A stretch of DNA of 64,000 bases from Rickettsiales bacterium (GCA_031260805.1 JAISKV010000007.1:4822-68821); one strand, 5' to 3'; positions 839 through 4,688 are shown, counted from the stretch's first letter. Notes: generated by a model from the letters alone, not told the origin. Numbers and translations are program-made.

Positions 839-3286
839 CTACTGCACTGGTATTTCTATCGGAACTTGTGTCAAATTCTGTATCTCAGTGAGTATTTGAT
901 TATATAAATTAATTTCTGTTTCACCAGCATCAACACTAATTATTAAACTAAACCGCGTTCTTGTCTGTTCGTCAATTACCGATTTTTTATTTCGCCACCA
1001 GCCACCGACACTATAAATAGCGATGTGTTTCATATCGGCTAACTGTGCGCCTGTAATTTCTATAATATCTTTATGAACTGAGCCTCGTTTCCGAGAGTTT
1101 GCACCATAAAACCAATCCAGCGCACCAACATCTACTTGCAAACCATCATCATTTTCATTTTCTTGGGCGGCAAGATCATTTATTCTTTTATTAAAATTTT
1201 CCGGTGTTTCTTCCGGACGCTGCAAATCAAATCTTAAATTATGAGATTGATACGCATATTTGCTTAAATACCCACGTTCGCTCGGATTAGGCTCTATAAA
1301 ATAAGATAGTGTTATTTTCAATTTGATTTTGGCAAGTTGTTCCAAAATGGCTCTCGGCCAAGGTAGCTCAAAGACAAGCATTTGAAATCGCCGTATTTTT
1401 GTTTTTCTGCCTTTATTATCAATACGGATTTCTGTTTTATATGCTTGAAAGTCTTTTTCAGCAATAATTGTTAATGCGGACGATGCACTATATTTTGCGT
1501 TATATATGCTTGGAATTCCATATCCAAAGATTCGTGCAAGTTTTGAAATATTTGTTTTAACTTGTTGTTTCGGAATTTTCTCTAGCATTTTATCAGTCCA
1601 TTCTGCTGAATGAACAACAAGTCCGCGAATTGTTTCTGGCCAGAATAAAGGATAGCTAGCCATAAGTTCGCCAATAAATTGTCCTGCTATTCCTGTTGAT
1701 GCGCTGGTGGCATTAATAGAGGTAAAGGGCTTTTCGTCAAAATTTTCAGCGCACCCAACAGGTTCTAGTGTATCATAGTTATATACATAACCATCTCGGG
1801 CATAAACAACTTTATTGCCACCTTCAAAGAGCACTTCCGGTTTTATAGGCCATTGCGAATTAAACTGACAAGAAGTTCTTGAATGCGGTGAGACATATCC
1901 GGCATCTGCATAAGGGAGCATTTCAGCATCCGCAATTAAATTAGCATCTGCTAAATGGGTACAAGAACCGACAGACAACACGTTCCAAGATTGCGCGGGA
2001 CTTTCTATACAGGAACCGATCTGTTTTAGTTTATAATCGTCTTTCTTTACAATTTCACGAATATTCCCAATAGAAACAGCAAATAGTTTGTCATAATCAA
2101 AAGTTAATTTATCCAAATAGGCAGACCAAAGTGATGGTTTCCCCCTATGTTTATCTCCACCTTCGCCTTCTGTAATTGGCATAATATAGGCATTATGATT
2201 ATGCGTTTGAGTTAAGATAACGGCGCTTTCTGTTAATTTTCCATATAATCCCTTGTAATTTTCATTATTAGCATCTGATATTTGAACCGCCTCTACTTTG
2301 TGATGCAAGCTTATGCTAGGTAGCTCTCTGAGCTTTGTTATGTCTCCGAACAAAGCCAATCCACCCATTTCTGTGGCATGTCCATAGTTTACACTAATAG
2401 CAAGAAAATTTGCAGCTGACTGATTCCTTACCAACGCACTTCCAATTAAAGGATGATTTACTATGTAATTTCCGTCCAATACCACAATTCTCGTATTATC
2501 ATTATCAGGATAACTCACTTTTGCGATTATTTCATCCAAGATAACTTGTTGCTCGCTTTGAGAAAGGTTTACAATGGGTTCATTTAGTTTTTTAGCAATG
2601 CGGATTTCTGCAATCAGATTGCATTTTTTGGTAAAGTCAGATAATTTTGTGATAGTGGATTTACAAATAAAAATAGTTCTATCTGGGAAGACCAGCGGGG
2701 TTTCTTTTATAAATAAACTTTCCCGTCTGGCAATATTAGTAAATTGAATTGTGTCAGCATCATTATTTGTGAGCCACAATTCCCACCAATGCTCCTTGTT
2801 ATCATTCGGAAATAAACTTGGGTCATCCGTGAACAAACGGCTAATATCGGAAATTTCAATTTTTTCAATGCTAGCTATCAACTGTGTGGGTGCGGTCGCA
2901 GCTCGTATCTCTGAATAATCTGTTAATAGTGCCTGTAATTTAGGCAAAGTTTTTTGAGAGTTAATTCGTATGTTTGCGGAAACCACATTTCCATTAGTGT
3001 CTTCTTTTATTGATAAAAGTTCCATATCAGCGGAATGGCGTTCTAAACTTTCATATAAAAATGATTTTCCTTGTTGTCCGCTAAATGTTAATACATAAAT
3101 TTCATCTTCTTGATGATTTCTAGAAATTTCTTCCAATTCTCTTTTTAACTTACTTGCGTGTGATTGTGGATTCCTCGGTGGAATATCATACTCACTACCT
3201 CTTGCGCGTTTAGGCGAAAAAGAAGATGCTCCTACGCGCTCCACCGGTAAAATCAAATGAGGCAAATGTTTATTATTATCGGGCAT
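839..3286 (-). CDS. S8 (subtilase) family serine peptidase with long N- and C-terminal extensions; IetS-like
   Basis: 815-aa ORF. Asp-His-Ser order typical of subtilases: IVVLDGNYIVNHP (Asp), NYGHATEMGGLA (His), INATSASTGIAGQF (Ser). About 260 aa N-terminal and about 170 aa C-terminal carry no motif I recognise. SD gaggat lies in the 15-nt gap after the upstream ATPase gene. Confidence 0.75.
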   Translation of the reverse strand: MPDNNKHLPHLILPVERVGASSFSPKRARGSEYDIPPRNPQSHASKLKRELEEISRNHQEDEIYVLTFSGQQGKSFLYESLERHSADMELLSIKEDTNGNVVSANIRINSQKTLPKLQALLTDYSEIRAATAPTQLIASIEKIEISDISRLFTDDPSLFPNDNKEHWWELWLTNNDADTIQFTNIARRESLFIKETPLVFPDRTIFICKSTITKLSDFTKKCNLIAEIRIAKKLNEPIVNLSQSEQQVILDEIIAKVSYPDNDNTRIVVLDGNYIVNHPLIGSALVRNQSAANFLAISVNYGHATEMGGLALFGDITKLRELPSISLHHKVEAVQISDANNENYKGLYGKLTESAVILTQTHNHNAYIMPITEGEGGDKHRGKPSLWSAYLDKLTFDYDKLFAVSIGNIREIVKKDDYKLKQIGSCIESPAQSWNVLSVGSCTHLADANLIADAEMLPYADAGYVSPHSRTSCQFNSQWPIKPEVLFEGGNKVVYARDGYVYNYDTLEPVGCAENFDEKPFTSINATSASTGIAGQFIGELMASYPLFWPETIRGLVVHSAEWTDKMLEKIPKQQVKTNISKLARIFGYGIPSIYNAKYSASSALTIIAEKDFQAYKTEIRIDNKGRKTKIRRFQMLVFELPWPRAILEQLAKIKLKITLSYFIEPNPSERGYLSKYAYQSHNLRFDLQRPEETPENFNKRINDLAAQENENDDGLQVDVGALDWFYGANSRKRGSVHKDIIEITGAQLADMKHIAIYSVGGWWRNKKSVIDEQTRTRFSLIISVDAGETEINLYNQILTEIQNLTQVPIEIPVQ

Positions 3287-3301
3287 TCAAGTTATCCTCG
3301 G

Positions 3302-4279
3302 TTATTTTTCAGAGTTTTTAACTTCTTTTATTAGCCCCAACAACAATTCTGCATCAATAGATGTATCGTCAAGAATTTTTTTCTTTTTAGCATTATCACA
3401 AACTTTGGCAATCTCAGCATAACTTATACCGTTGGCAGCCTTAGTTATCTCCGCCCATTTTATTTTATGGCTATATTTGGCAGTCAAATATTTCTTAAAT
3501 GTTTCTTCAATCAGTTTTTGATCCGGGTTATCATAATGCAGAATATCATCAAAACGGCGGAACAATGCCTTATCCAGCAATTCGCTGTGATTAGTGGCGG
3601 CAAGTATCAAGCTATCTGAACGCGAATTTTCTATAAACTGCAAAAATGTGTTCAATATACGGCGAATCTCGCCCACATCATTTGTTAAACTTCTACTACT
3701 TCCGATAGCATCAAACTCGTCAAAGAAATACACTCCGCGAATCTTTTTTATGTGATCAAATATAAGTCGCAACTTTCCAGCAGCTTCCCCCATATATTTC
3801 GTAATAATCCCATCCAGTTGGATCGTAAATAATGGCAAATTTAACTGCCCGGCCAGCGCAGATGCGGTCATTGTTTTACCAGTTCCGGGTGCGCCGATCA
3901 TTAAAATCTTGCTCCGCGGCAATAATCCGTATTCGCGCAATTTCTGCTGTTGCTGTTGCTCTTCAACGATTCGGTTTAGTTTCGTTGATAATTCTTGTGG
4001 CAAAATCAGCTGATTCAGCTTGATATTACTATATTTAGCTTCAAACAGCCCGGCAAGTTCGCCGCGCGGCTCAATTATGGAAATAGTGGAAAGTGCAGAT
4101 ACTTTGTTATCTATTCTATCGGCAAACTTTTGAATAAGGTCGTTTAGTTCCTTTGCAAATACGGCATTACCTTTATTTGCCTCGTGCGCGGCAATCTGCG
4201 TGGCGATAGACTTGAAACGCCCATCATCCCCGTTTTTATAGCTTTCCAGCAAAGCTTTCACTTGCGCAGCGGTTGCCAT
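3302..4279 (-). CDS. Classical AAA+ ATPase (single AAA module); IetA-like
   Basis: 325 aa. Walker A MIGAPGTGKT, Walker B GVYFFDEFDAIG, sensor-1 LILAATN, Arg-finger region ALFRRFD. Own SD (aagggag) and a TATAAT box on the minus strand at 4311..4306. Forms a co-directional two-gene unit with the S8 peptidase. Confidence 0.8.
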   Translation of the reverse strand: MATAAQVKALLESYKNGDDGRFKSIATQIAAHEANKGNAVFAKELNDLIQKFADRIDNKVSALSTISIIEPRGELAGLFEAKYSNIKLNQLILPQELSTKLNRIVEEQQQQQKLREYGLLPRSKILMIGAPGTGKTMTASALAGQLNLPLFTIQLDGIITKYMGEAAGKLRLIFDHIKKIRGVYFFDEFDAIGSSRSLTNDVGEIRRILNTFLQFIENSRSDSLILAATNHSELLDKALFRRFDDILHYDNPDQKLIEETFKKYLTAKYSHKIKWAEITKAANGISYAEIAKVCDNAKKKKILDDTSIDAELLLGLIKEVKNSEK

Positions 4280-4688
4280 CGCGTAATCTCCCTTGTTTGT
4301 GGTTAATTATAACATTTTTTGAAATTTTCGCTATAAAAAAATCCGCCACTATGATATGGGCGGGAATAAATCACCCAGATAATATAGCTCAAACTCCGGA
4401 AAAATCAAGCCGCCCCAACCGACTTAACTTACAGATTCTCATTAGTTCTAATCATATGTGGCGATGGGTTATCAGAATCTTGCGGGTTTGCATCCGCCGC
4501 CGCCAGCGCAAGCATACAATCCAAAATGCTTGAATTACAAATATATCTTGCTTTTTCCATTATATCGGTGTATAAAGTGTTCCAAGCGGAGCGAATAGCA
4601 CCGCACCAGAATTAGATAAAAATTAAAAGATAATAGATAAAAATTTCCGACTATCGTTCTGGCCTTTGCTGGAATAACAAAATATATA

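Follow-up and report, generated by a model that had tools for sequence, protein, structure and literature searches.

Genes and signals of the ietAS cassette

We analyzed a stretch of 64,000 nucleotides (nt), here called the window, from a genome listed as Rickettsiales bacterium (GCA_031260805.1, JAISKV010000007.1:4822-68821), whose host is an uncultured Enterousia-like gut alphaproteobacterium. Near its left end the window carries a cassette of two genes, ietA and ietS, which encode an AAA+ ATPase and an S8 subtilase and which were assigned by profile and full-length matches to the IetAS family. The cassette comprises the following features, with positions counted from the first letter of the window:

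3302-4279, minus strand: ietA, 325-amino-acid (aa) classical-clade AAA+ ATPase; putative antitoxin/regulator (open reading frame, profiles, homology)
839-3286, minus strand: ietS, 815-aa cytoplasmic S8 subtilase; putative toxin/effector (open reading frame, profiles, homology, AlphaFold2 model)
4306-4314 (read 4314-4306), minus strand: extended -10 element TGtTATAAT upstream of ietA (read from the sequence)
4288-4292 (read 4292-4288), minus strand: Shine-Dalgarno sequence GGGAG, 8 nt before the ietA ATG (read from the sequence)

An earlier note on this DNA had described two co-directional genes 15 nt apart, and this was borne out: both lie on the minus strand, the spacer spans 3287-3301, and no other long open reading frames (ORFs) occupy these coordinates. 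The two genes form one operon, and all catalytic residues are intact. The ATG of ietA is at 4279, and on reading the sequence a GAGGA motif was found before the ATG of ietS. The cassette had also been credited with its own TATAAT box and Shine-Dalgarno sequence. Both can be read in the sequence, but a generic promoter scan of the region gave 8 sites against 14 expected from shuffles and hence no enrichment, so that an ietA promoter at this position is plausible and stays unproven. No RNA element was found within the cassette using Rfam.

The note's AT-rich islet is real and is the terminal part of an island that measures about 8 kb. The guanine-plus-cytosine (GC) content is 39.3% in the element and 51.4% in the host; at third codon positions it amounts to 27 to 42% in the genes of the element and to 58 to 65% in the adjacent host genes. 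An independent assembly from the same sample (L001; L numbers denote the loci compared) is identical to the window over the shared 4,586 nt, with no differences. The gene caller of the public assembly placed a 60-aa ORF at 4351-4533 on the plus strand (L001 54-236), divergent from ietA; it is conserved upstream of ietA in no relative and is probably spurious.

Assignment to the IetAS family

PADLOC profiles confirmed the ietAS-like identity proposed in the note. IetA was the best family for the ATPase (E values of 7.7e-73 and 1.2e-71, 244/240 bits, nearly full length), and IetS was the best family for the protease (4.4e-25, 86 bits), where residues 247-807 matched profile positions 236-784 of 795. 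On the same models the founding IetA/IetS pair, on the Agrobacterium Ti plasmid pTiC58 (NC_003065.3, 97873-101373), obtained 239 and 85.6 bits and thus equals the window pair. Both proteins aligned collinearly with their pTiC58 counterparts, IetA with 50% identity over residues 1-305 (E 1e-106) and IetS with 32% identity over residues 6-815 (E 6e-124). The two pairs further share gene order, a short gap, similar lengths (328/836 aa in pTiC58 and 325/815 aa in the window), and aligned catalytic residues. They differ in that the pTiC58 pair resides on a conjugative plasmid whereas the window pair sits on a chromosomal tRNA island, in that their sequences are moderately related, and in that a plasmid stability and incompatibility phenotype is known for pTiC58 alone.

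The best NCBIfam matches of the window pair were IteA and IteS. The corresponding equivalog models, IteA_antiphage (NF042959) and IteS_antiphage (NF042956), have curated whole-protein cut-offs, and the window pair remained below them with 208.7 versus 510 bits and 32.7 versus 900 bits. The pair of pTiC58 (198.8 and 39.9 bits) and a pair from a Klebsiella plasmid (201.4 and 89.3 bits) also failed, which indicates that these models describe a narrower, phage-tested branch. The window pair is thus IetAS in the PADLOC/pTiC58 sense and by its profile scores appears to belong to a sub-branch different from that of the anti-phage equivalogs. It has the same two-protein architecture and falls into the same PADLOC/DefenseFinder family, Gao_Iet, as the anti-phage ietAS of Bacillus cereus m1293 and Escherichia coli, from which it is set apart by scores far below the equivalog cut-offs.

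The family is large and already catalogued, and the locus is a further member that does not alter what is known of it. At E <= 1e-30 we counted 1,910 cluster representatives (50% identity), mostly full length. IetS homologues were present on 487 plasmid records, of which 340 were conjugative plasmids. PHROG families, annotated as of unknown function, exist for both proteins. A scan of IMG/VR for IetS returned no match, and the phage GenBank set contained two fragmentary, unannotated IetS matches only.

Conservation of the gene pair

The note had suggested neighborhood conservation as a check, and the two genes were found together in all contexts examined. It had also named missing IetA/IetS profile matches and a lack of co-occurrence as grounds against its reading; neither applies here. 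Among 80 metagenomic loci with IetS relatives (30 to 35% identity), 72 had enough upstream sequence to be testable, and all 72 contained an IetA homologue directly upstream and co-directional. The gene ietA also precedes ietS in L002-L005, L087-L093, L180, and the pTiC58 context. The gap between the genes was 3 to 19 nt in six measured pairs, and in L180 they overlap by 23 nt. The pairing is obligate across the IetAS family. From cassette to cassette, DNA homology sets in no more than about 20 nt from the ietA start and stops by the 3' end of ietS. The two proteins differ in their rate of change, IetA being 75 to 81% identical where IetS is only 43 to 53% identical, in keeping with a conserved engine that works with a rapidly changing sensor/effector.

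The surroundings of the pair varied. It sits between tRNA genes in L002-L004 and adjoins a Phage_CRI region in L005 (Candidatus Termititenax persephonae). In L088/L089 it is accompanied by a ParB-methylase, DUF2924, and, beside tRNA-Ser, a further large serine recombinase, and a terminase gene adjoins it in L090. The latter locus also harbors a 1,450-aa ORF without a Pfam match (9755-14107) directly downstream of IetAS, in a prophage-like region with terminase and DUF2924. In Oceanimonas sp. GK1 (L092, CP003171; 3165-9484), IetAS lies beside AbiEi/AbiEii, with relaxase, TrbL, and RepC adjoining; this region looks like a defense cluster on an integrated conjugative or mobilizable element. No helicase gene was present beside the window pair or beside the pairs of relatives in the contexts examined.

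Motifs of the ATPase IetA

Pfam AAA matched a single module of IetA (residues 125-248, E 2.7e-29). Conservation was assessed in an alignment with 41 relatives (42 sequences), which confirmed the note's description of a classical AAA+ ATPase with intact Walker A, Walker B, sensor-1, and arginine finger motifs:

3872-3895, minus strand: Walker A GAPGTGKT, IetA residues 129-136 (G129, G132, G134, K135, and T136 invariant)
3785-3799, minus strand: pore loop 1, K-Y-M-G-E, IetA residues 161-165 (alignment)
3716-3721, minus strand: Walker B, D187-E188 of IetA (invariant)
3554-3592, minus strand: second region of homology, sensor-1 N230 to arginine fingers R241/R242 (alignment)

Residues T229, N230, R241, and R242 are invariant. 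In the pore loop K161 and G164 are invariant, and conservation of Y162, M163, and E165 is 90% or higher. K-Y-M-G-E corresponds to the aromatic motif in the pore loops of classical AAA+ proteins that thread their substrates. The ATPase module is nearest to p97/Cdc48-D2, FtsH, and PAN. PADLOC matches of IetA to TRIP13, DolB, and mad8 were dismissed, as the ATPase fold is common to all of them.

Domains and structure model of the protease IetS

The note's 815-aa subtilase with an intact D-H-S triad was verified in an alignment with 51 relatives (52 sequences). Pfam Peptidase_S8 matched with an E value of 2.3e-30, and the protein has the following parts:

2501-3286, minus strand: N-terminal region, IetS residues 1-262 (per-domain identity, AlphaFold2 model)
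1517-2494, minus strand: S8 catalytic domain, IetS residues 265-590 (Pfam)
2474-2476, minus strand: D271 (at least 90% conserved)
2378-2380, minus strand: H303 (invariant)
2063-2065, minus strand: oxyanion N408 (invariant)
1703-1705, minus strand: S528 (invariant)
842-1516, minus strand: C-terminal beta-rich domain, IetS residues 591-815 (conservation, model)

The regions flanking the S8 envelope had been estimated at about 260 and 170 aa. The first value was close (about 264 aa), but the C-terminal part is longer than thought (about 225 aa). An architecture of 806 to 850 aa is common to all IetS relatives, and a recent Pfam domain, PF27160 (Y4kK_N), occurs in the N-terminal region of relatives. 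In the alignment, the N-terminal 260 residues were the most variable part, whereas the C-terminal 215 residues were as conserved as the catalytic core. Both extensions had been offered as candidate sensor or substrate-recognition domains. By these comparisons they are family-wide rather than lineage-specific, and the N-terminal part alone is variable enough for a sensor candidate. The sequence of IetS has no signal peptide.

The AlphaFold2 model of full-length IetS had a predicted local distance difference test score (pLDDT) of 86 and a predicted template modeling score of 0.75. It places in order a tail, two beta-alpha-beta-beta-alpha-beta units of ferredoxin-like fold (residues ~60-130 and ~140-230), a linker helix, the S8 core, and the beta-rich C-terminal domain. 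Residues 24-33 are disordered in the model. For residues 1-20, the pLDDT was 72/86 in the full-length model and 57/62 in the isolated domain, and their beta contacts appear in the full-length model only; this gain in confidence and contacts suggests docking of the tail to the rest of IetS. In the fold search, the whole model best matched unprocessed or multi-domain subtilases, namely, ProN-Tk-SP, KP-43, fervidolysin, pro-subtilisin, PCSK9, and furin; the top matches Tk-SP and KP-43 carry C-terminal beta domains. Modeled alone, the N-terminal region reached a pLDDT of 87 and gave weak matches to tandem ACT/ferredoxin-like regulators (E ~1e-4, template modeling score 0.2 to 0.3). Sequence-profile searches of the Protein Data Bank returned no match for the N- or C-terminal regions, and a viral fold library gave generic subtilases only.

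The island that carries the cassette

The note had regarded the module as horizontally acquired. This view is supported and can be sharpened, with the cassette being cargo of a serine-recombinase island apparently integrated at tRNA-Arg. In the window the island is represented by the following:

1-4650, no strand: window part of an AT-rich integrative island of about 8 kb (composition, L001, sister islands; right boundary approximate)
1-488, minus strand: 5' part of a gene for a 181-aa predicted lipoprotein, running off the left end and complete in L001 (4099-4644); the next cargo gene

The right-hand edge lies roughly between 4,600 and 4,930, as bracketed by composition only. To the left, L001 extends about 4.25 kb past the end of the window. 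Beyond the lipoprotein gene, which has an island-like GC content of 41.8% and no family match, it contains (L001 4743-8284, to 3.7 kb left of the window) a 254-aa ORF, a 288-aa MerR-like protein, a 530-aa recombinase, and tRNA-Arg(CCG). The MerR-like and recombinase genes form a unit at L001 5609-8284. The 530-aa protein is a large serine recombinase with Resolvase, Recombinase, and Zn ribbon domains and belongs to a phage-integrase PHROG; its gene overlaps at the 3' end with tRNA-Arg(CCG), which is encoded on the other strand. Low GC content is common to all six island genes. The 181-, 254-, and 288-aa proteins gave no PADLOC or PHROG match, and their genes were ruled out as parts of the system because they are absent beside IetAS elsewhere.

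Relatives of the recombinase (50 to 62% identity) occupy the same position at tRNA-Arg(TCT) or tRNA-Arg(ACG) in L174-L179, whose hosts are similar gut alphaproteobacterial genomes. A MerR-like homologue (35 to 43% identity) precedes the recombinase in L176-L179; none was detected in L174/L175. Two of these islands are flanked by direct repeats that copy the 3' end of the tRNA (20 nt in L178, about 4.6 kb; 15 nt in L179, about 11.3 kb). The cargo of L179 includes a fused PARIS AriAB (E 7e-144), a KAP NTPase, and a PD-T4-5-like protein, while the islands of L176-L178 carry genes of unknown function. The tRNA-Arg islands with recombinase and MerR-like genes form a family of small islands with interchangeable cargo, which is IetAS here and PARIS in L179. 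The vehicle of the cassette belongs to this family with its exchangeable defense cargo, in a lineage of gut Alphaproteobacteria about which little is known.

A remnant of the recombinase gene, about 100 nt from its 3' end, is located between ietS and tRNA-Glu(CTC) in L002 (10499-10596; also in L004, 5382-5492). In L002 it shows 70% nucleotide identity and 51% amino acid identity over 37 residues, and its distance to the tRNA (23 to 24 nt) equals that in L001. L002 looks like a decayed island of which IetAS alone is left. The link with tRNA and recombinase does not hold for IetAS at large, as a tRNA was nearby in 5 of 80 distant loci and a related recombinase in none of the 80. Two short repeats occur at chance level and are not claimed as attachment (att) sites of the window island, the 9-mer AGTCGGAAA (L001 8191, window 4652) and the 7-mer TGGTGCG.

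Described systems and proposed mode of action

IetAS was first described on pTiC58 as a toxin-antitoxin system in which the protease acts as the toxin and is countered by the ATPase, the antitoxin, according to the accounts that cite the original work (cited in PMC13069673, PMC8562856). In Mycoplasma mycoides, TA132/133 is an AAA-ATPase/subtilisin-like protease toxin-antitoxin pair (PMC8562856). As in the window, its ATPase gene is upstream of the gene for a cytoplasmic S8 protease of about 757 aa; the protease is toxic, and cells depend on the ATPase only if they have the protease as well, the ATPase gene being deletable only together with the protease gene (PMC8562856). The pair is chromosomal in a Mollicute, and it is likened to the window pair by description and not by sequence. 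Similarly, the ietHAS system (Liu-DS4) has IetA and IetS components in common with the window pair and differs by an SNF2-type helicase, which has no counterpart here; an ietA mutant of this system could not be made, and its protease activity was needed for defense (PMC13069673). Tested anti-phage ietAS of B. cereus and E. coli require protease activity and act by abortive infection (PMC13069673; bioRxiv 10.1101/2022.08.27.505566). The note had held trigger, substrate, and mechanism of IetAS to be uncharacterized. One trigger is in fact known, as the B. cereus system responds to YosG of phage SPbeta (bioRxiv 10.1101/2022.08.27.505566); for substrate and mechanism the statement stands, the anti-phage mechanism being given as unknown as of 2026 (PMC13069673). 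We found no structural study of IetAS in our literature search.

A further parallel is functional. In HORMA-containing cyclic-oligonucleotide-based anti-phage signaling systems (CBASS), the AAA+ remodeler TRIP13/Pch2 keeps the effector pathway off via the N-terminal tail of its partner. The weak TRIP13 profile matches of IetA reflect the common ATPase fold; TRIP13/Pch2 belongs to another AAA+ subfamily, its partner is a HORMA protein and not a protease, and homology is confined to the ATPase module. Gao and coworkers reportedly presented ietAS as an anti-phage system in 2020.

Taken together, the cassette very probably is an IetAS pair of the pTiC58/Y4kK type, in which an ATPase restrains a toxic protease and which works in the manner of a toxin-antitoxin or abortive infection system. 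In homologues, the protease alone is toxic and is neutralized by the ATPase, inactivation of the ATPase is not tolerated as long as the protease is there, defense needs protease activity, and a phage protein triggers abortive infection. The individual steps at the window pair can be outlined with much less assurance; for threading and a role of the tail, including release and N-terminal recognition, the chances are about evenly balanced at best. IetA would be a hexameric, ATP-driven AAA+ machine, as suggested by the conserved K-Y-M-G-E pore loop, that threads substrate and keeps cytoplasmic IetS inactive. Most likely it would engage the flexible N-terminal tail or the N-terminal domains of IetS, and the fast-evolving tandem ferredoxin-like domains would be the likeliest surface for autoinhibition or trigger recognition. 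IetS might be released by a phage trigger or, when the element is lost, by the end of the IetA supply; freed IetS would then cleave host or phage proteins and arrest growth. The conserved C-terminal beta domain may be a structural or substrate-binding part.

Several points weigh against this interpretation. The window pair, like that of pTiC58, fails the anti-phage equivalogs, and its role in phage defense is therefore extrapolated from homologues; the phenotype demonstrated for the pTiC58 pair is that of a toxin-antitoxin system and of plasmid stabilization, according to the same citing accounts (cited in PMC13069673, PMC8562856). The large, clinically common pTiC58/Klebsiella-plasmid branch as a whole lies outside the narrow anti-phage models, which makes its defense role an extrapolation as well. 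The threading action of IetA on IetS is deduced from motifs, and the weak matches of the N-terminal model give fold and not homology, with ACT-like and propeptide-like folds being inseparable. As regards the island, integration is argued from composition and from the sister islands. In the window there was no significant distal att repeat; only TGGTGCG recurs (4608-4602), and the best alignment to the tRNA end was reached by 128 of 1,000 shuffles. Nor was an empty site found among 80 loci of genomes with YbeY-Lnt, which are too distant (no synteny, island genes, tRNAs, or N-masking); the nearest species representatives are only about 50 to 55% identical. Exact-protein look-ups found the species in one sample only.

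Alternative explanations

The pair may instead be mainly an addiction module that stabilizes its island or plasmid by post-segregational killing and not a phage defense: upon loss of the element the supply of IetA would end, and residual IetS would kill the cell. IetAS of pTiC58 was found as a stability and incompatibility determinant, according to the reports that cite this work (cited in PMC13069673, PMC8562856). The window pair is of the pTiC58 type, and both miss the anti-phage equivalogs; conjugative plasmids make up 340 of the 487 plasmid records with homologues, and the window pair resides on an excisable-looking island. The two roles are not exclusive, however, and ietAS homologues do protect against phages by abortive infection. 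The presence of PARIS in the cargo position of a sister island suggests that cargo is selected for defense, and the much faster evolution of IetS than of IetA fits an arms race better. We regard addiction as the main function as a possibility of some substance, though an unlikely one.

Two other explanations assign different tasks to the proteins. IetA could be an activator that, upon infection, strips or unfolds an inhibitory propeptide-like N-terminal domain and so switches IetS on. Unprocessed pro-subtilases head the fold matches of IetS, the beta-alpha-beta-beta-alpha-beta topology of its N-terminal region is common to subtilase propeptides, and the translocating pore loop of IetA is intact. 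However, loss of the ATPase is lethal in homologues that keep the protease (Mycoplasma, PMC8562856; ietHAS, PMC13069673), and this dependence on the protease marks the ATPase as a net negative regulator, which leaves the activator role improbable. Far less credible still is a housekeeping chaperone/protease pair, or a secreted subtilase with its maturation factor, unrelated to conflict. Both domains are generic (AAA, Peptidase_S8), and the ATPase resembles FtsH, PAN, and Cdc48, but IetS has no signal peptide, the composition is foreign, and the contexts are variable and mobile. Furthermore, the pair is absent at this locus in 80 related genomes (distant and non-syntenic), and the profiles and full-length alignments point specifically to IetAS.

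The preferred reading, a toxic protease restrained by its ATPase, can be taken further in a speculative form that we consider rather doubtful as a whole. IetS would be held off by a pseudo-substrate-like tail together with tandem ACT/propeptide-like domains, continuously gripped or re-threaded by the pore of the IetA hexamer. The hypervariable N-terminal domains would be the receptor at which phage triggers, possibly also a small-molecule signal, break the grip, and the islands would represent an undescribed family of minimal "defense shuttles" in gut Alphaproteobacteria that exchange IetAS and PARIS. If the gripped-tail part were true, this compact, conserved pair would be a tractable model for the mechanism of IetAS. 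The domain map in any case offers testable mutants for this unsolved mechanism. For IetS it comprises an N-terminal tail that is disordered and conserved, a pair of variable domains of ferredoxin-like fold, the S8 core, and the conserved beta domain; for IetA it comprises the conserved threading pore loop.

Junction zone and neighboring host genes

Between the island and the lnt stop codon lies a further conspicuous feature:

4689-4938, no strand: pair of near-perfect, very large hairpins separating the island from the lnt stop (RNA fold -153 kcal/mol, z = -18)

The GC-rich hairpin (4689-4847) has a stem of about 60 bp, and the AT-rich hairpin has a 36-bp stem (4849-4884/4903-4938). The hairpins occur nowhere else in the 64-kb window except for a 20-nt partial match with 2 mismatches in ybeY-lnt (6779-6798), which corresponds to the core of the GC-rich stem. 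Both Logan contigs of the sample stop at the borders of the hairpin-bearing stretch (4587-4931). The assembly break at 4586 was rejected as an island boundary: the second contig has its end at the lnt stop, and the break is therefore put down to the hairpin repeats. The hairpins mark the junction zone and could be a terminator pair, a miniature inverted-repeat transposable element (MITE), or a junction scar.

Next to them, the endoribonuclease YbeY and the apolipoprotein N-acyltransferase Lnt are fused in a 639-aa ORF (4932-6851, minus strand) with PF02130, PF20154, and PF00795. Matches by tblastn over both the YbeY and the Lnt parts (query ~17-632) were obtained in about 80 metagenome-assembled genomes of gut Alphaproteobacteria/Enterousia, and the fusion appears to be lineage-wide. 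Further into the window, a 621-aa protein encoded beside trxB (8017-9882, plus strand) gave a faint Pfam match to the large subunit of ribonucleotide reductase and may be a divergent enzyme of that kind.

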